From Candidatus Desantisbacteria bacterium CG1_02_49_89 (GTDB lineage: Bacteria; Desantisbacteria; UBA1551): a stretch of 64,000 bases of DNA. This document shows positions 4,572-58,805 of this stretch, one piece after another. The stretch's first letter is position 1. The number at the start of each line of letters is the position of its first letter. Below the pieces are notes generated by a model. The model had not been told where the DNA came from, ran no database searches, and saw only the letters and a program-made list of their open reading frames with translations. The stretch lies in the NCBI GenBank assembly GCA_001871075.1, contig MNUP01000033.1, forward strand, positions 437 through 64,436, given 5' to 3'. The position numbers were made by a program, and so were the translations under genes.

Positions 4572-6080
4572 TTAAATAACGAACAGGTTGGCGGAAGAGA
4601 AGTTGGCGTCCGTGGTAAGGTTTACTCCCAGTCTTTTCAGGCCGGCTTCATCGCCGGGAGTGGGTATATGGGTCATATGGACTTCGCAGCCACGGAGTTT
4701 CTCCAGTTCCTTCAGCGCGATCTCGGCAGTGTGGTTGGTGGCAGCGCTTATCGAAAGGGCCGTAAGCGCTTCATCAAGGCTAAGGCTCTCGGATTCAGCT
4801 CCGAGTATGCCTTCTTTCATTTTCGCTATGCAGCTGAGCAGGTTCGGGGAAAGAAGAAGTATTCCGTCAGGTATGTTCGAAAGCGCTTTTATAGCGTTTA
4901 TAACAAGGCTTGACGCCGCGTGCATCAAGGGCGAGTTCTTACCCGTGATCATACGGCCGTCAGGCAGCTGTATTGCCGCCCCGCAGAACACGCCTTTGTT
5001 TCCCTTGCCTTTTTTCTCAGCGTCATCCGCGGCTTTGCGCGCGGGCAGGACAACGCCGCGGCCCTCCGGCTTTAACCCGAGTTCCTCCATGATCTTTTTC
5101 GCCTTCTCCACTGTTTTTTCGTTCTCTATGCCCTGGAAATATTCGCAGTTGTAACGCAGGAACCTGCGTATGATCTCCTGTTTCGCTGCTTCCTGCACGA
5201 TTTCGTCGTCTATTATCCCGAAACCGACCCTGTTCACTCCCATATCGGTCGGGGACTTGTACGCGGACTCCCCGAGGATCTTCTGCAGTATTTTCGCGAG
5301 TATCGGGAAACTCTCAACATCCCTGTTGTAATTAACGGAAACCTTGTTATAGGCGCTGAGGTGGAATGGGTCAACCAGGTTGAAGTCAAGTATATCCGCG
5401 GTTGCAGCTTCATACGCGATATTGACCGGGTGCTTCAGAGGCAGGTTCCAGATCGGGAAGGTCTCGAATTTCGCGTATCCCGAATGCATGCCTTTCTTGT
5501 GATCGTGGTACATCTGCGAAAAACAGGTTGCCAGCTTGCCGCTGCCCGGGCCGGGCGCCGTGATTATCACTATAGGTTTTTTGGTGGGTATGTATTCGTT
5601 TTTACCCAGGCCTTCGTCGCTGACAATAGCGTCCGTGTCAACGGGATAACCTTTTATGACCCCGTGGGTATATACCTTTATTCCCCTGCGCTCCAGCTTG
5701 TTTTTGAACTTCACAGAAAGAGGCTGGGAATCGAACCTGGTGATAAGCACAGCGGTTACGTCCAGGTTCCATTTGCGAAGGTCGTCCATAAGCTTCAGGG
5801 TCGCTATGTCATACGTAATGCCGAAATCACCCCTTATCCTCCCCTTCTCTATGTCACCCGCAAAAATGCACAGGATTATCTCAACCTTTTCCTTAAGTTC
5901 CTGCAGGAGCTTTATCTTAACGTTGGGGTCGTATCCGGGCAGGACCCTTGCGGCGTGATAATCGTAGCACAGCTTTCCGCCGAATTCAAGGTAAAGCTTG
6001 TTGTTGAACTTCCTGACCCGGTCAAGTATCTCCGCCGTTTGCTCTTTCAGGTATTTTTCGTTGTCAAACCCGGTCTTCAT
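4572..6080 (-). CDS. UPF0371/DUF1846 family protein
   Basis: MKTGFDNEKYLKEQ...LCYDYHAARVLPGYDP matches the characteristic UPF0371 N-terminus. It lies 12 nt downstream of thrS. Confidence 0.75.
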   Translation of the reverse strand: MKTGFDNEKYLKEQTAEILDRVRKFNNKLYLEFGGKLCYDYHAARVLPGYDPNVKIKLLQELKEKVEIILCIFAGDIEKGRIRGDFGITYDIATLKLMDDLRKWNLDVTAVLITRFDSQPLSVKFKNKLERRGIKVYTHGVIKGYPVDTDAIVSDEGLGKNEYIPTKKPIVIITAPGPGSGKLATCFSQMYHDHKKGMHSGYAKFETFPIWNLPLKHPVNIAYEAATADILDFNLVDPFHLSAYNKVSVNYNRDVESFPILAKILQKILGESAYKSPTDMGVNRVGFGIIDDEIVQEAAKQEIIRRFLRYNCEYFQGIENEKTVEKAKKIMEELGLKPEGRGVVLPARKAADDAEKKGKGNKGVFCGAAIQLPDGRMITGKNSPLMHAASSLVINAIKALSNIPDGILLLSPNLLSCIAKMKEGILGAESESLSLDEALTALSISAATNHTAEIALKELEKLRGCEVHMTHIPTPGDEAGLKRLGVNLTTDANFSSANLFVI

Positions 6081-6092
6081 TGACCTTTACTC

Positions 6093-7820
6093 CTATTCTT
6101 TGAGTTCTCCCTCGAACTTACCGACAAACTCCTCTATTTTTATAGCGCCCGCGTTGCCGCCTTTCTGGGAACGGACCGAAACAGTGTTTTCAGAGACTTC
6201 CTTGTCCCCTATTACCAGCATATACGGGACCTTTTCCATCTGCGCGAGCCGTATTTTCGCCTGCAGGGTCTGGTTGTCCTCATCGATAGCAACTCTTGCG
6301 CCCTTTTCTGCCAGAGTTTCCTTTACTTTTCTTGAGTATTCGTTATGCCTGTCAGCTATGGGTATCAGTTTTACCTGGACAGGGGCAAGCCAGAGCGGGA
6401 AAGCCCCGTTGTAGAATTCGATCAGGATCGCCATGAACCGCTCAAAAGAACCCAGTATGGCGCGGTGTATCATTATCGGCTCGTGCTCTTTGCTGTCCTC
6501 GCCCACATAGGAAAGCTTGAAAGCCGCGGGAAGGTTGAAATCCACCTGTATCGTGGTGCACTGCCATTCCCTGTTAAGCGCGTCCTTGATCTTAATGTCT
6601 ATTTTAGGCCCGTAGAAAACGCCTTCGCCCGGGTCGATCTGGTATTTTGTCTCGTTTTTTTCAAGCGCTGTCTTCAAAGCGGAAGTGGCAACCTCCCAGT
6701 TCTCAAGTGTCCCCACGTATTTCTCAGGCCTGGTGCTGACATACATCACGTAATCCTTGAAACCGAACTTTCCCAGGAAAAACGAAGTGAGCTTGAGCAC
6801 GCCTGATACTTCGTCCTCTATCTGGTCTTTCCTGCAGAAGATATGCGCGTCGTCCTGCGTGAAGCCGCGCACCCTGAGCAGGCCGTGCAGGACGCCCGGT
6901 TTTTCGTAGCGGTACACCGTACCCATTTCAGCCCAGCGTAAAGGCAGATCCCTGTAGCTGCGGGTCTGTGTCTTGTACACCATAATATGGCCGGGGCAGT
7001 TCATGGGCTTGAGCATGTAACTTTCATTCTCGAACTCCATCGGCGGGTACATGTTTTCCTTATAGAAATTAAGGTGGCCGCTTGTTTTCCACAAACCGGT
7101 CCTTGCTATGTGCGGTGAGTAGATCAGATCGTAGCCGTTCTTTAAATGCGTTTCAACCCAGAAATTCTCTATTATCCTGCGTATCAGCGCGCCCTTAGGA
7201 TGCCAGTAGATCAGGCCGGGCCCAGCTTCCTCCTGATGTATGCTGAAAAGGTCAAGTTCCTTACCGAGCTTCCTGTGGTCCCTTTTTTTGATCTCTTCCA
7301 GCCTCTGGATGTATTCGTCCAGTTCCTTCTGGGAGTAGAACGCGGTCCCGTATATGCGCTGCAGCATCGGGTTCTTCTCGCTTCCCCTCCAGTACGCTCC
7401 TGCAACGCTGAGCAGTTTGAACGCCTTGATCTCGCCCGTTGACGGAACATGGGGTCCCCTGCACATATCCGAAAAATCCCCGCATTTATAAAATGTCACC
7501 TTCTGGCCGGGTATTTCGGCCAGCAGGTCAAGCTTGTACGCCGCGCCGGCGTCTTTAAGGTTTTTTTCCGCTTCCTTGCGGTCAACCTCGATCTTCTCAA
7601 AAATGCTGTCCGCGTTGATGATCTCGCGCATTTTTTCTTCTATTTTTACCAGGTCTTCTGTCGCAAAAGGGTCCTGCCGGTCAAAATCGTAGTAGAAACC
7701 GTCTTCTATGGAAGGGCCTATCCCGAATTTCACGCCAGGGAAAAGCTCTTTTACCGCGTATGCCAGTATGTGGCTCGCGCTGTGCCTGTAAACGTCAAGA
7801 GGATATCTTTCCTTGCTCAT
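6093..7820 (-). CDS. thrS: Threonyl-tRNA synthetase
   Basis: Class II aaRS core. HRKLGKELDLF motif. N2/editing domain (HSASHILAYAV). C-terminal anticodon-binding domain. At 575 aa it begins at the N2 domain, with no TGS domain. Confidence 0.9.
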   Translation of the reverse strand: MSKERYPLDVYRHSASHILAYAVKELFPGVKFGIGPSIEDGFYYDFDRQDPFATEDLVKIEEKMREIINADSIFEKIEVDRKEAEKNLKDAGAAYKLDLLAEIPGQKVTFYKCGDFSDMCRGPHVPSTGEIKAFKLLSVAGAYWRGSEKNPMLQRIYGTAFYSQKELDEYIQRLEEIKKRDHRKLGKELDLFSIHQEEAGPGLIYWHPKGALIRRIIENFWVETHLKNGYDLIYSPHIARTGLWKTSGHLNFYKENMYPPMEFENESYMLKPMNCPGHIMVYKTQTRSYRDLPLRWAEMGTVYRYEKPGVLHGLLRVRGFTQDDAHIFCRKDQIEDEVSGVLKLTSFFLGKFGFKDYVMYVSTRPEKYVGTLENWEVATSALKTALEKNETKYQIDPGEGVFYGPKIDIKIKDALNREWQCTTIQVDFNLPAAFKLSYVGEDSKEHEPIMIHRAILGSFERFMAILIEFYNGAFPLWLAPVQVKLIPIADRHNEYSRKVKETLAEKGARVAIDEDNQTLQAKIRLAQMEKVPYMLVIGDKEVSENTVSVRSQKGGNAGAIKIEEFVGKFEGELKE

Positions 7821-8041
7821 ATGGCCTCTTTAATAAATAGATTAAATATATAATATAAAACCTGAAAATAGAGAATTGAAAATTGACCACAATCTCGCAA
7901 TCTCCTTTATCTATTGCTCTATTTTCTATTGCTCCAGTTTTCCGCAGTGCATATCAAAAAGACAGAAAATAGAAAATTGAGCAATAGACCGTCCGCCAAT
8001 CATGCTGGGCGGACTCTGATTTTTCGCAGAGCGAAAAATCT

Positions 8042-8115: not shown

Positions 8116-8210
8116 CACATTCAAACACTCTTAGCGAAGTTGAAAACTGCGACCACAGGGAGTCCCGCATCTCCGATGGTACATCGGAGCATCGGGGAGC
8201 TAACCGCCCG

Positions 8211-8289
8211 TTTTAATACAGTTAAAAGTTGCCCGCCCCGACAACCATCGGGGCGAGGTCTCGCCCTGATTGAAATCAGGGCGGAAAAG
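8211..8289. repeat. Twin-hairpin element, copy A (CCCCGACAACCATCGGGG + CGCCCTGATTGAAATCAGGGCG)
   Basis: About 95% identical to 58728-58805. A diverged relative lies at 8623-8690. Confidence 0.5.
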
Positions 8290-8395
8290 CTGAAAGTTAA
8301 AAACTAAAATAGCCTGATAGAAAATAGAAAATTGAGAATAGACCGTCCCGATGTAACATCGGGACTCCACCACTTTTCCCTTGTTGGGAAAAGTG

Positions 8396-8470
8396 GTGCC
8401 AAGGGGCGGAATTGAACCGCCGACGCACGGATTTTCAGTCCGTCGCTCTACCAGACTGAGCTACCTTGGC
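8396..8470 (-). tRNA. tRNA-Phe(GAA), with CCA encoded
   Basis: GCCAAGGTAGCTCAGTCTGGTAGAGCGACGGACTGAAAATCCGTGCGTCGGCGGTTCAATTCCGCCCCTTGGCACCA. Confidence 0.85.
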
Positions 8471-8756
8471 ACATCCTGGTTAATGATAAAGAAAAGATTG
8501 ATGAACCTTTCAGTCCGTCGCTCTTCCTGGGTGATCTGCATAAAAGAATGCGCGTCGCTTTGCTCTTCCACCCGTCGAAGACATAAGTGATGTCTTCGAC
8601 CCAGACTGAGCTACCTTGGCACGTTAAATACAGTGATGAGTGAAAAGTGTCGCCCCTTCGGCGACCCGCCGTTGAGGCGGGAAAAGTCAAAAGATCATAC
8701 AACAGACTGCCTGTCCGTAATTACTGATATTCGCTTAATTGATTGACGCTTTTTAT

Positions 8757-8831: not shown

Positions 8832-9063
8832 GTTGTCAAGGTATTATACGATTCTCAGTAGATAACTGGATAACTTGACGATTGGATAACTGGTTACTGC
8901 TAATCGTCCGATAATCTAATAGTCTAATTGACTAAAATATTATACCATATATTTAATCTATGTCAAGTTTTTAGATAATTTTAACAGGTTCAAAATAAAA
9001 TAGGCAGACTTTTTAAGGTCTGCCTATTTCTTTTGCCCTTTTATTCTTTTTCCCGGCCCGGTC

Positions 9064-26895: not shown

Positions 26896-27489
26896 TTATG
26901 CTCCAGAAAATTTACCTGCCTTTCTGAAAAAAGGAATAAAAGCAGGAACTAATTTTTTATATTTCAGATATTCTTCTCCTATCTCTTTGCTTAATATTTT
27001 CTCCTCATAAGACATTCTCATGAGGAGCACGGGAATATAGCACAGGAACAAAAAAACGAGGGAAAGATATGAATTCGGAACCAGGCACAGACCTGTGCTT
27101 TTTATAATCATTGAAAGGTATGCGGGATGCCTTACGTAAGCATAAGGACCTTTCCTGATAATGCTGTGCCCCTGCCTGATTTCGATATCCCCGCTCCAAT
27201 ATTTCTGAAGAGTTTTAACAGCATAGCTCCTGCCCCACAAGCCAAGCAGAAACAGAGCAAGGCCTGCAAACGATACCCAGATATTGATTTTTCTTTTAAT
27301 AATAAAGTATTCGGCAACCGCCAGCATGTTCAGCGTGTAATATGTCAGCGTAATCAGCATATGCGTCCATTCAAAATAGGTTTTACCCCTATTTTGCGAA
27401 GAAGCTTTATCCACCCTTCTTTCCGCAAACAGCTGATAAAATACAGCAAACCCAAGAAAAAAGAGATAAAAAACTGTGTATATTTTCAT
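26896..27489 (-). CDS. ICMT/PEMT-family membrane methyltransferase
   Basis: Multi-TM. RKGPYAYVRHPAYL signature of the isoprenylcysteine carboxyl / phospholipid methyltransferase family. Confidence 0.7.
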   Translation of the reverse strand: MKIYTVFYLFFLGFAVFYQLFAERRVDKASSQNRGKTYFEWTHMLITLTYYTLNMLAVAEYFIIKRKINIWVSFAGLALFLLGLWGRSYAVKTLQKYWSGDIEIRQGHSIIRKGPYAYVRHPAYLSMIIKSTGLCLVPNSYLSLVFLFLCYIPVLLMRMSYEEKILSKEIGEEYLKYKKLVPAFIPFFRKAGKFSGA

Positions 27490-38253: not shown

Positions 38254-38352
38254 AACTTCAGATCCTGGATACTGGATGCAAGATGCTGGATAAAATCAAT
38301 TTGAAGGTTGTGTGGGAATAAAAACCGAAAATAGAACAATGGAAAATAGACC

Positions 38353-38439
38353 GTCCCGACCGTAGCCCGCCACGGTTATTGGCGGGCGCAGGTCCCTGTG
38401 TTAAGTTCCGGATTTATAGGAACTACAGGGATCGGGACT
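38353..38439. repeat. Structured element, copy 1
   Basis: GTCCCGACCGTAGCCCGCCACGGTTATTGGCGGGCGCAGGTCCCTGTGTTAAGTTCCGGATTTATAGGAACTACAGGGATCGGGAC. It is 95% identical to 54175-54260. Confidence 0.45.
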
Positions 38440-38568
38440 CCAGATTCTTCGCGGAGCGAATGCAAGTAAGCAAACACTGAGAATAGAGAATTGAAAATAG
38501 ACCGCAATGTCGCTTTGTCTTTTCTATTCTCGATTTTCTATTGCTCCATTGCTCTAGTCCCGATCTTA

Positions 38569-38650
38569 TATCGGGACTGCCGAGGGCGGGATTTGAACCC
38601 GCAAGGGTTACCCCATACGCCCCTTAAACGTACGTGTCTGCCAGTTCCAC
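38569..38650 (-). tRNA. tRNA-Leu (type II, long variable arm). The anticodon loop is unusual; best parses are AAG or TAA.
   Basis: GCCGAGGTGGTGGAACTGGCAGACACGTACGTTTAAGGGGCGTATGGGGTAACCCTTGCGGGTTCAAATCCCGCCCTCGGCA. D-arm, T-arm and acceptor are canonical Leu-like. The anticodon stem-loop folds as either a 7-nt loop TTAAGGG or a 9-nt loop. Confidence 0.7.
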
Positions 38651-38707
38651 CACCTCGGCTAATAATCTATTGCTCTATTTTCTATTGCTCTGCTTGAAGG
38701 GGTTTAT

Positions 38708-53332: not shown

Positions 53333-53587
53333 TTAATATAGTCAGATATATAAATAGAATTGAGAATTTAAAAACGGGTCGGCTTCGAACCATATTTAAA
53401 AGCTGAAAATGGATAATAGAGCAATAGACCATCCCGATGTAACATCGGGACTCTATTTTTTCGCTCTGCGAATGCTCAATACTGAGAATGGAAAATAGAG
53501 CAATAGACCGCAATTTCGCAATTCCTTTCTCTATTTTCTATTGTTCTATTGCTCCATTGCTCTATTTTTTCGCTCTGCGAAAAAATG

Positions 53588-53659: not shown

Positions 53660-53770
53660 TTAAAATACAGTTGTCAGTTGTCGGTTCTCAGTTGTCAACT
53701 AAAAATCAAACTCTTTGATCTATTTTCAATTTTCCTTTGCTCGATTGCTCTGATCCCGATTTTATCGGGA

Positions 53771-53800
53771 TTTGCGAGGGAGAGGACTTGGTCCTTTGTG
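53771..53800 (-). pseudogene. tRNA-Leu 3'-end remnant followed by the family post-tRNA hairpin
   Basis: TTTGCGAGGGAGAGGACTTGGTCC mimics the tRNA-Leu(TAG) 3' end TCTGCGAGGGAAGGGACTTGAACCC. No complete cloverleaf. Confidence 0.3.
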
Positions 53801-54029
53801 AATCTTCGCCAGAACCGGGTGAAGTCTCAGATTCACCCGGAGCCGGGGAATTTTGCTGACGCCCCGATGGTAGTCATCGGGGCTTTACCAGTGGCGCAAA
53901 ATTCCTTTCAAGTCTTTGTCAAAACTTGAAAATGGAAAATTGAACAATAGACCGCAATCTCCTTAAGTATTTATCTATTGCTCTATTCTCTATTTTCGAT
54001 TGCTCCGATTTTTCGCCTCGCGAAAAATC

Positions 54030-54111: not shown

Positions 54112-54174
54112 TTACAATCTATTCTCCATTTTCTATTTTCGGACTCTGAAAATAGAACAATAGAGCAATTGACC

Positions 54175-54260
54175 GTCCCGACCGTAGCCCGCCACGGTTA
54201 TTGGCGGGCGCAGGTCCCTGTGTTAAGTTCCGGTTTTATCGGAACTACAGGGATCGGGAC
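54175..54260. repeat. Structured element, copy 2 (spacer between tRNA-Lys and tRNA-Leu)
   Basis: Near-identical to 38353-38439. Confidence 0.45.
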
Positions 54261-54286
54261 TCTGATCTTTCACCTCGTGAAAGATC

Positions 54287-54358: not shown

Positions 54359-54475
54359 ATATTACTACGATGAAAGAAAATAGAAAATGGAAAATAGACC
54401 ACAATCTCGCTATTCCTTAATCCATTGCTCTATTCTCTATTGCTCGATTGTTCTGTTTTTCCCGAAGGGAAAAAC

Positions 54476-57596: not shown

Positions 57597-57820
57597 GTGT
57601 CAGAATGTCAGAGCAGAATTATGGCTCTTTGACTTATATCTTCAATACTTTTTAATCAAGCCGCGTTTTCCTTTCTATATTTTCAATTGCTCTGTTTTCA
57701 GCTCTGCGAAATAAAATCTGAAAATGGAAAATAGAGCAATAGACCGAAATGTCGCTTCTTTTTTCTCTATTTTCTATTGTTCTATTGCTCCATTGCTCTG
57801 ATTTTCCCTGCGGGAAAATC

Positions 57821-57899: not shown

Positions 57900-58042
57900 A
57901 CCTAATAATCCATTTTCTATTTTCTATTATCGATTACTCGATTGCTCTGTTTTTCCCGCTGGTACTGCCTGAGAATAGAGAATGGAACATAAACCGTCCC
58001 GATGTTACATCGGGACTCTGATTTTTCGCTTCGCGAAAAATC

Positions 58043-58116: not shown

Positions 58117-58223
58117 ACACCCATAAAAACAGTGTCAAAGAGTCAGAGTGTCAGAGTGTCAAAGTAAAAGATAAGAATCCTTAGATATTTGGAGCGAAGG
58201 GAAACTGCCTGTCCGCCGACTTG

Positions 58224-58293: not shown

Positions 58294-58432
58294 AAGCATA
58301 TTGCGGCAAACCCACGACGTTTAGTTAATACACAAATACCCTTAAACAAAAAGAACTAGAGAATAGAAAATTGAGCAATAGACCGTCCCGATGTCACATC
58401 GGGGCTCCAAATTTTCGCGTTGCGAAATTTTA

Positions 58433-58507: not shown

Positions 58508-58727
58508 TCGCCTGCTTTGCTCGCCCAGGGCATTCTGCAGGCGAACAAAGCGTTTGTTCGTTCCACTCACTCCATGCCCGTGAACGACATAAGTGATGTC
58601 GTTCACCCCAAAGCAGGCGCGCTAATCCTGTGTGCTATGCAATAACGGAAGTGTGGCTCGTTCCACTCGCATCGCACCCGTAAACGACATAAGTGATGTC
58701 GTTTACCCAGGCTGCGCTACTCCCCGC

Positions 58728-58805
58728 GTCTAAACAGTTAAAAGTTGCCCGCCCCGATAGCCATCGGGGCGAGGTCTCGCCCTGATTGAAATCAGGGCGG
58801 AAAAG
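58728..58805. repeat. Twin-hairpin element, copy B
   Basis: CGTCTAAACAGTTAAAAGTTGCCCGCCCCGATAGCCATCGGGGCGAGGTCTCGCCCTGATTGAAATCAGGGCGGAAAAG, as at 8211-8289. Confidence 0.5.

Follow-up and report, generated by a model that had tools for sequence, protein, structure and literature searches.

Why should a bacterial genome place the same hairpins and short repeats behind its tRNA genes again and again? The question is raised by a 64,000-nucleotide (nt) stretch of contig MNUP01000033.1 from Candidatus Desantisbacteria bacterium CG1_02_49_89, hereafter the window. In it, a first-pass annotation had listed a hairpin after each of ten minus-strand tRNA genes together with 13 blocks of repeats, and had read the ensemble as a repeated promoter/terminator scaffold or as iterated protein-binding sites. 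Blocks and hairpins alike belong to a single conserved module of ~105 nt. Our preferred reading, to which we assign a probability of roughly 45%, is that this module is a co-transcribed tRNA-trailer element for processing and insulation, a folded RNA akin to an intervening sequence, for which a tentative mechanism is proposed below.

The window contains exactly ten tRNA genes, on which ARAGORN and Rfam agree. All lie on the minus strand, as do all gene-like open reading frames (ORFs) of at least 100 amino acids (aa); the GC skew is negative throughout (1-64000), and consensus promoters are few in the tRNA regions scanned. This organization implies very long co-directional transcription units. 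Only tRNA-Phe has an encoded CCA, the other nine lacking it. The reported hairpins were all recovered, including every quoted variant once the tRNA-sense strand is read, and they begin within 0-3 nt of the gene in ten cases out of ten. After nine tRNAs, a U-run forms the 5' arm and an A-run the 3' arm, with a few closing G-C pairs, as in GATTTTTCGC-TCT-GCGAAAAATC (tRNA-sense strand); the tenth, tRNA-Leu(aag), is followed directly by a hairpin of the type GTCCCGAT..ATCGGGAC. The repeat core clusters at each of the 13 listed blocks and at no other place in the 64 kb, being confined to four tRNA regions, and none of at least ten intergenic gaps of 130-550 nt without a tRNA contains a block. The density that had been called unusual is indeed far beyond chance, a degenerate 21-nt pattern (TCYATTGCTCWATTNTCYATT) giving 10 matches in the window against 0.01 expected from shuffles.

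On other points the earlier description needs revision. The repeat unit has a period of 7-8 nt, not 10, and the repeats, although direct as claimed, are also inverted, the blocks occurring in two complementary orientations: an A-rich arm, AGAGCAATnGAGCAATAGAAAATAGA, with the unit (C)AGAGCAATnGAGCAATAGAAAATAGAGCAATAGA, and a T-rich arm, GGTCTATTGCTCTATTTTC, with the unit GGTCTATTGCTCTATTTTCYATTYTCAG. The GTCCCGATGTAACATCGGGAC hairpin, thought to be an addition after the first hairpin, is instead an alternative occupant of one slot in the module. The order of slots is a first hairpin (hp1), AGA, a helix P1 with an A-rich loop or else a GC-rich hairpin, a GG bulge, and a tail of UCUAUUG repeats.

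The first hairpin, hp1, has a stem without mismatches, 6-16 bp long and mostly 10-12 bp, which begins at the discriminator base or 1-2 nt past it. An encoded CCA, where present, is taken into the stem, and in CCA-encoding relatives it is likewise base-paired inside hp1. The sequence of hp1 differs in nearly every copy, and AGA follows it directly, the 3' end of hp1 touching AGAGC in 60 of 73 copies. The next slot has two alternative occupants. The first is helix P1, in which AGAGCAAUnGAGC pairs with GCUCn'AUUGC around an A-rich loop of AAUAGA units; its strands are the 13 nt past hp1 (AGAGCAATnGAGC) and the 10 nt just before GG-TCT. The second is a GC-rich hairpin (the GTCCCGAT hairpin), whose place is taken in two window copies by an 85-nt Y-shaped element. 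After the slot come the GG bulge, across which AGA pairs with TCT, and a U-rich tail that starts with TCTATTG. The A-rich arm holds 3-5 units and is complementary to the tail, such that the completed RNA can give up P1 in favour of an AU-rich duplex of 25-30 bp. Across phyla the primary sequence is near-invariant (AGAGCAATTGAGCAATAGA; TTGCGGTCTATTG).

We built a covariance model, R1, from nine copies from other genomes only, and searched the window with filters off. The window has 14 modules, which are listed here with their partial and decayed companions.

8368-8398, minus strand: hp1 after tRNA-Phe (CACCACTTTTCCC-AACAA-GGGAAAAGTGGTG), the stem taking in the encoded discriminator and CCA (sequence reading and tRNA ends).
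8319-8367, minus strand: remainder of the GC-hairpin-type module after tRNA-Phe, consisting of GAG, hairpin GTCCCGATGTTACATCGGGAC (8365-8345), GG and U-rich tail TCTATTCTCAATTTTCTATTTTC (R1 hit 8319-8397, 39.8 bits, E 2e-5).
7964-8040, minus strand: GC-hairpin-type module after tRNA-Val, within the interval 7861-8040 (R1 37.4 bits, E 6.5e-5); its parts, by sequence reading, are hp1 8040-8018, AGA, hairpin GTCCGCC..GGCGGAC 8014-7991, GG and U-rich tail 7988-7964.
7863-7950, minus strand: P1-type module without a tRNA of its own, at a distance of 45 nt 5' of the start codon of thrS (R1 30.7 bits; fold); by folding, A-rich arm 7932-7910, loop with AAGGAG, T-rich arm 7888-7867.
38666-38690, minus strand: lone A-rich arm that stops 7 nt short of the tRNA-Leu(aag) 5' end (partial R1 hit 38658-38688).
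38478-38578, minus strand: full P1-type module after tRNA-Leu(aag), its first hairpin of the GTCCCGAT type (R1 56.9 bits, E 1.6e-8; fold z = -4.85).
38326-38448, minus strand: second, tandem module with degenerate hp1, 85-nt Y-shaped element, GG and U-rich tail 38352-38330, followed by a pfkB-like gene (weak R1 hit).
54375-54475, minus strand: full P1-type module after tRNA-Arg(tcg), ending 16 nt before tRNA-Lys (R1 66.8 bits, E 2e-10; fold).
54119-54286, minus strand: tRNA-Lys module with hp1 54286-54264, AGA, Y-shaped element 54260-54175, GG and U-rich tail 54172-54149 (weak R1 hit 54147-54198); a 7-nt loop then leads to an A-rich arm, 54141-54119, that stops 7 nt before tRNA-Leu(tag) (sequence reading).
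53926-54029, minus strand: full P1-type module after tRNA-Leu(tag) (R1 65.1 bits, E 4.6e-10; fold z = -5.96).
53678-53775, minus strand: degenerate module upstream of tRNA-Gly, a small hairpin and a decayed A-rich arm (R1 27.0 bits, E 0.006).
53483-53586, minus strand: full P1-type module after tRNA-Gly (R1 60.7 bits, E 3e-9; fold z = -5.09).
53403-53473, minus strand: tandem GC-hairpin-type module that starts with a 22-nt duplicate of the 3' part of the Gly hp1 plus AGAG, a major facilitator superfamily (MFS) gene coming next (R1 27.6 bits).
58358-58432, minus strand: GC-hairpin-type module after tRNA-Pro (R1 31.0 bits, E 1e-3).
57970-58041, minus strand: GC-hairpin-type module after tRNA-Arg(tct) (R1 31.1 bits).
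57905-57947, minus strand: long A-rich arm, complementary to the preceding U-rich tail and ending 7 nt before tRNA-His (sequence reading).
57718-57820, minus strand: full P1-type module after tRNA-His, near-identical to that after tRNA-Gly (R1 56.1 bits, E 2e-8; fold z = -5.14).
57654-57717, minus strand: decayed second copy with an imperfect hp1 and AGAGCAATTGAAAATATAGAAAGG, lacking a tail (weak R1 hit).

The two Y-shaped elements (54175-54260 and 38353-38438, both on the minus strand) are near-identical 85-nt copies, each in the slot of the GC hairpin. Their outer stem, GUCCCGA/UCGGGAC, encloses two inner hairpins. Folding gives -41 to -44 kcal/mol with z about -4.9, and the element has no match in Rfam.

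Taken by class, the R1 matches reach the 3' ends of nine of the ten window tRNAs with E about 1e-3 or better, the match at tRNA-Lys being only a weak one. Five are full-length (56-67 bits, E 2e-10 to 2e-8; after Arg-tcg, Leu-tag, Gly, Leu-aag and His), and each of these begins at the base following the tRNA. Four are GC-hairpin variants (31-40 bits; after Phe, Val, Arg-tct and Pro), and several tandem or decayed copies are also picked up. Antisense scores are 20-35 bits below those of the sense strand. The sole match away from the tRNA regions, 26926-27027, was rejected as a chance hairpin within a coding region.

How widely is the module distributed? Genome and metagenome collections were scanned with two short patterns, and the many metagenome matches that were plain (AGAGCAAT)n microsatellites were discarded. 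The scans revealed the module in the same position in metagenome-assembled genomes labelled Omnitrophota, Elusimicrobia, candidate division FCPU426, Firestonebacteria and "Planctomycet*"; genomes labelled Auribacterota and Verrucomicrobiota were added through the context of homologues of a neighbouring protein. The pattern had no matches in a viral contig collection, by which a phage origin was ruled out. Across 75 loci, R1 finds 96 non-overlapping copies. Enrichment at tRNA loci, whose lack the first-pass annotation had regarded as fatal to its proposal, is evident here too: 44 of the 96 copies lie -4 to +5 nt from the 3' end of a tRNA gene on their own strand, where negative distances mean that hp1 takes in the discriminator and CCA, and a further 4 of 96 abut an antisense tRNA 5' end. 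The tRNAs of the regex-collected set (73 modules) carry 22 different anticodons. In four genomes under three phylum labels, a copy follows tRNA-Tyr in a Thr-Tyr-Gly cluster, which argues for old, vertically kept copies; one of these genomes, at locus L003, also has tRNA-Thr(ggt) followed by tuf, with a variant module between the two. Tandem arrays of 2-4 copies occur at L018, L021, L164 and L166.

The strongest signal is base-pair covariation, and this speaks for a nucleic acid that folds more than for sites lined up in duplex DNA. For P1, it was first scored on a hand-built alignment, in which pair 9-23 is UA in 17 copies, CG in 11 and GC in 4, pair 12-20 is GC in 19 and AU in 9, and pair 4-28 is GC in 34, AU in 3 and GU in 3; the observed covariation score was reached by none of 500 shuffles. 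In a model-based alignment of 99 distinct copies, which is fitted to the structure of the model, changes on both sides are seen at all 12 hp1 pairs and at 6 P1 pairs, 94% of cells are paired overall (96-97% in hp1), and the covariation score is 0.430, against 0.114 for shuffles and at most 0.07 with slid partners. Even the variant modules of L003, L004 and L008, with the units GAGCAGTC, GAGAATCG and GGGAATAG, keep both the periodicity and the complementarity of the arms.

Two conserved pairings exclude one another. The arms can form hairpins of 20-30 bp, with z-scores of -4.7 to -6.0 in five of six folded copies and -2.1 in the copy upstream of thrS. P1 is made from the outermost part of the A-rich arm and the innermost part of the 3' side, so it cannot coexist with the arm-to-arm hairpin. 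In 73 copies, the minimum-energy fold of the full module is the long hairpin, with a mean of -26.4 kcal/mol; when P1 is enforced, the mean is -13.7 kcal/mol, the arm-to-arm hairpin being better by about 12.6 kcal/mol. P1 appears in the minimum-energy fold of 57 of 73 transcripts cut before the tail, vs 2 of 73 complete copies. The conservation of both pairings suggests that folding may be ordered and co-transcriptional, P1 preceding the long duplex. An H-type pseudoknot, combining P1 with pairing of tail to loop, was considered as the full structure and rejected on steric judgement, as only 2 nt (GG) join P1 to the tail.

What, then, of the promoter/terminator scaffold? A modular repeated scaffold specific to tRNA units is borne out; its promoter and terminator functions are not. 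The blocks contain no minus-strand sigma-70 match (-35/-10 hexamers, 16-18 nt spacing), with totals not above those of shuffles, and on these consensus scans the promoter reading was rejected. Strong sigma-70 matches (11-12 of 12) are found only upstream of the clusters, at 8966-8939 and 54650-54622. Nor does hp1 fit a canonical intrinsic terminator, because its U-run lies on the 5' arm and it is followed by CAGAGC and no U-tract. The GC-hairpin variants, hairpin plus tail, give weak terminator-like matches, no more than in shuffles. The shortest spacer from a module to the next tRNA is 16 nt, and spacers this short leave no room for separate transcription units. Only modules separate tRNA-Arg, -Lys, -Leu and -Gly, which are almost certainly made as one transcript, and no promoter of its own was found for tRNA-Leu(aag) past the preceding gene. 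A same-strand ORF starts at most 150 nt downstream in 45 of 69 cases, the genes including dnaX, glmS, glmU and tuf, among others.

The module is an uncatalogued structured, repeated intergenic or processing element. At the Rfam 15 gathering threshold, the window yields tRNA and no other family; two tRNA regions scanned at relaxed E-values gave only sub-threshold chance matches, and 20 module-bearing loci gave only tRNAs and c-di-GMP-I riboswitches. A known RNA family was therefore ruled out at both gathering and E-value thresholds, and literature searches by sequence, protein family and topic returned no description of the module. Since it lies behind tRNAs in several phyla and belongs to no catalogued RNA family, it is probably an undescribed spacer that aids tRNA excision. 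The co-oriented gene run has few promoters, and tRNAs would therefore have to be cut from polycistronic transcripts. We propose that hp1 would mark and clamp the 3' boundary of the tRNA, thereby setting the site for RNase Z or an endonuclease, and that after cleavage it may cap the 5' end of the downstream RNA. Because the module folds on itself, the spacer would not disturb the folding of the tRNA. The long AU-rich duplex would then offer a cut of the RNase III type, parting the tRNA from the next tRNA or mRNA, by a double-strand cleavage analogous to those in rRNA processing stems and in 23S rRNA intervening sequences.

Several observations weigh against this processing function. The near-invariance of the primary sequence across phyla exceeds the needs of a pure structural spacer. 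In each of the two helices, G.U mismatches are as common as A.C mismatches (17 vs 18; 21 vs 28), and more G.U would be expected of a one-strand RNA; wobble pairs gave no assignment of the strand. The sense strand is only slightly favoured in stability (47 vs 26 copies), and ~8% of copies are reversed, with hp1 against an antisense tRNA 5' end or a ribosome-binding site. In addition, the loci were chosen by sequence pattern, which makes the census biased, and the fitting of the model-based alignment to the model structure favours that structure.

The rival that survives best is a selfish cassette, similar to an intervening sequence, that lodges at tRNA 3' ends: a small element, mobile or duplicative, of which the module would be the non-coding body and whose full form would include a protein gene. 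We consider this doubtful, though less so than any other rival. It draws on a gene link outside the window: next to 22 of the 96 copies, a few bases past the tail, lies a gene for a 114-aa four-helix-bundle protein of the PF05635/TIGR02436 family, the '23S rRNA intervening sequence' proteins, with weak similarity to Avd. This protein is >72% identical among its 120 best matches, which span several phylum labels, and its gene follows the module behind varied tRNAs (Ser, Gln, Asp and Tyr) in different genomes, as a cassette would. At L171 (2371-2870), a 27-nt direct repeat of the 3' part of hp1 plus AGAGCAAT flanks module and gene, and at L172 (2385-2900), both are flanked by a 13-nt direct repeat of the tRNA-Ser 3' end; we read these repeats as the likely footprint of cassette insertion or duplication. 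The 22-nt duplicate of hp1 and AGAG that flanks the Gly module of the window, the near-identity of the Gly and His paralogues, the tandem arrays, and the equality of G.U and A.C, as expected for a DNA hairpin, agree with a cassette. The window itself contains no four-helix-bundle gene, and its copies would have to be ORF-less derivatives, tolerated because they are folded away and processed out. However, no recombinase or transposase was seen in or near any copy, and the viral contigs gave no matches. The groundwater population of the window has also been assembled as GCA_002781065.1 and GCA_002785465.1, and among the 6-7 assemblies examined in each of two regions there is no presence/absence polymorphism; region 1 was aligned across six assemblies, with 4 variable columns, and region 2, compared by gene spacing only, has the same spacing throughout. 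Long-term selection is indicated by orthologous copies that persist under different phylum labels and show compensatory change, and P1 pairs outermost left with innermost right, unlike terminal inverted repeats.

A bolder proposal, slightly less probable still, makes the module half of an undescribed tRNA-linked system: a sequence-conserved nucleic acid with two states, RNA or else single-stranded DNA, that would dock at tRNA 3' ends and partner the highly conserved Avd-like protein, either as a ribonucleoprotein freed from tRNA precursors or as a cassette moving from one tRNA locus to another. If this were true, the '23S rRNA intervening-sequence protein' family would gain a nucleic-acid partner and a function.

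It is improbable, in our view, that the ~110-nt spacer with its terminal hairpin is freed by RNase Z and RNase P to act in trans as a discrete stable small RNA, perhaps a ligand of the Avd-like protein. Such an RNA would account for the position of hp1, always at the end that tRNA processing would make (5' where the module is downstream of a tRNA, 3' where it is upstream), and for the near-invariant primary sequence and the 3-5 units of the A-rich arm; the >72% identity of the 114-aa protein encoded next to it is what one would expect if protein and RNA were binding partners. It is at odds with the 14 window modules, which have no four-helix-bundle gene among them, and with the many copies that are degenerate or in which the A-rich loop is swapped for the GC hairpin.

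More improbable again is a role at the level of DNA, whether as a series of protein-binding sites, as a scaffold of promoter or UP-like type, or as a topological insulator past highly transcribed tRNA genes in the manner of bacterial interspersed mosaic elements (BIMEs). It would explain the tandem 7-8-bp units in both orientations, the second, TGAC-type tandem repeat of 7-8 nt found 5' of several tRNAs, the missing wobble asymmetry, and the mosaic combination of parts, as in BIMEs. But the blocks lack a sigma-70-type promoter, a spacing of 8 bp is too tight for ordinary dimeric DNA-binding proteins, the orientation is strongly biased with transcription, and hp1 varies nearly copy by copy yet stays perfectly self-complementary, which speaks for a folded strand and not a duplex site. 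Least probable of all is transcription control, by an attenuator or an rrn-type antitermination loading site built from a hairpin and BoxA-like UUGCUCUAUU / UGUUCUAUUG units with P1 and the long hairpin as a switch: two conserved, mutually exclusive pairings would form in the order of transcription and the GC hairpin with its tail was flagged as terminator-like, but there is no proper U-tract, and the modules lie within apparent operons with no promoter after them. The hairpin with its single-stranded, GCUCU-rich tail bears a putative resemblance to the boxB-boxA arrangement of rRNA operons; rRNA genes are absent from the window (Rfam), and probes for conserved rRNA segments found none in the fetched loci.

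Returning to the trailer-processing element, the 23S rRNA intervening sequence appears to be its nearest analogue, with shape, host (stable-RNA transcripts) and, outside the window, associated protein family in common. Both are extended AU-rich stem-loops of ~100 nt in a stable-RNA unit, presumably removed by processing. Some intervening sequences carry an S23p/four-helix-bundle ORF of PF05635, the family whose gene follows 22 of the 96 module copies elsewhere but none in the window, and ORF-less versions exist; the stem-loop formed from complementary ends has its counterpart in the arm-to-arm folds of 20-30 bp. Unlike intervening sequences, the module is found after tRNAs and not in 23S helices 25 or 45, with all window copies flanking tRNAs, and its ORF is downstream of the hairpin and not in the loop. 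Its primary sequence is conserved, with units that recur every 8 nt, and hp1 as a clamp and P1 as an alternative helix set it apart further; cleavage of the module by RNase III is a prediction. A likeness also exists to the processing stems of rRNA and the external transcribed spacers (ETS) of tRNA (the thrU-tyrU-glyT-thrT-tufB co-transcript, 3'ETS-leuZ), in the complementary leader and trailer around a stable RNA, in a conserved tRNA-tuf context common to both, and in the release of a spacer by RNase P and a 3' endonuclease, which for the module is our proposal. In contrast to these spacers, that of the module is conserved in sequence, repeated, self-contained and placed behind many tRNAs.

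Other repeat families are more distant. With repetitive extragenic palindromic (REP) elements and BIMEs, enterobacterial repetitive intergenic consensus (ERIC) sequences and Correia-type repeats, the module shares modular hairpin units in transcribed intergenic DNA, occasional inversion, and a function that may lie in stabilizing RNA or in its processing by RNase III. It differs in being limited to four tRNA regions in the window (elsewhere, 48 of 96 copies abut a tRNA end), in its nucleotide-exact position at that end, in its conservation across phylum labels instead of within species, and in showing no link to REP-associated tyrosine transposases (RAYTs) or other transposases. Integron attC sites likewise have hairpins conserved in structure and variable in sequence, a conserved extrahelical bulge (here GG) and small cassettes alongside, but the consensus of the module contains no R''/L''-L'/R' boxes (RYYYAAC / GTTRRRY), no integrase was seen in the flanking gene lists, and the module is upstream, not downstream, of the cassette gene and tied to tRNA ends. 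The inverted-repeat arms and occasional flanking duplications recall miniature inverted-repeat transposable elements; P1 is not nested like terminal repeats, and no presence/absence polymorphism appears among the 6-7 assemblies per region. The module is unusual in that it docks at tRNA ends with nucleotide precision, is conserved under several phylum labels, and has arms with an 8-nt period and two conserved competing folds.

The module would be a conserved, structured element with strong covariation in Omnitrophota, Elusimicrobiota and neighbouring candidate phyla, in which RNA processing is almost unstudied, and it bears on how tRNAs, mostly without an encoded CCA, are excised from very long operons oriented along a single strand. 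It also supplies a concrete nucleic-acid context for PF05635 (intervening-sequence/Avd-like) proteins outside diversity-generating retroelements. In practice, the modules break metagenome assemblies at tRNA loci and can be used as a marker for these lineages.

Other small elements were noticed at the tRNA genes. Just upstream of intact genes lie decayed 5' parts of tRNA-Phe and tRNA-Pro (8508-8620 and 58508-58726, both minus strand), with inserts of 76-99 nt after the D-loop CTGG and, in tRNA-Pro, also in the anticodon loop. Each insert opens with an 11-bp hairpin (loop CACUU, covarying stems) and continues with GGG, which suggests a small element with tRNA genes as its targets. Partial, insert-bearing tRNA copies and duplicated tRNA 3' ends are present at L021 (about 1-1600), L013 (about 1-190), L005 (about 7240-7460), L003 (about 7650-7870) and L008 (about 4950-5280); there the inserts are in the T-loop or anticodon loop, and the copies and duplicated ends stand between an intact tRNA and the module. 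In these lineages, small insertions into tRNA genes seem to be frequent. In two places, a conserved double-hairpin leader, TTTTCCGCCCTGATTTCAATCAGGGCGAGACCTCGCCCCGATGG..TCGGGGCGGGCAACTTTTAACTGT (8210-8275 and 58735-58800, both minus strand), stands directly 5' of a tRNA 5' fragment.

The second tandem repeat, also of 7-8 nt, lies just 5' of tRNAs at 53690-53722, 58130-58163 and 8860-8895 (minus strand), and elsewhere at L111 (3860-3900 and 4200-4232) and, in L007, upstream of tRNA-Thr. Its units are TTGACAAC/TGACAAC, TCTGACAC, AATGAC and CAGTTATC, and its final ACTGT lies some 8-12 nt 5' of the tRNA; a promoter-proximal array is one possible reading. Finally, two of the module-bearing loci contain c-di-GMP-I riboswitches, L056 at 531-624 and L086 at 30-115. 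The riboswitch of L086 adjoins a module with a long GC-rich first hairpin (TAGTGCGCTGT..ACAGCGCAC), a subtype that is not next to any tRNA.

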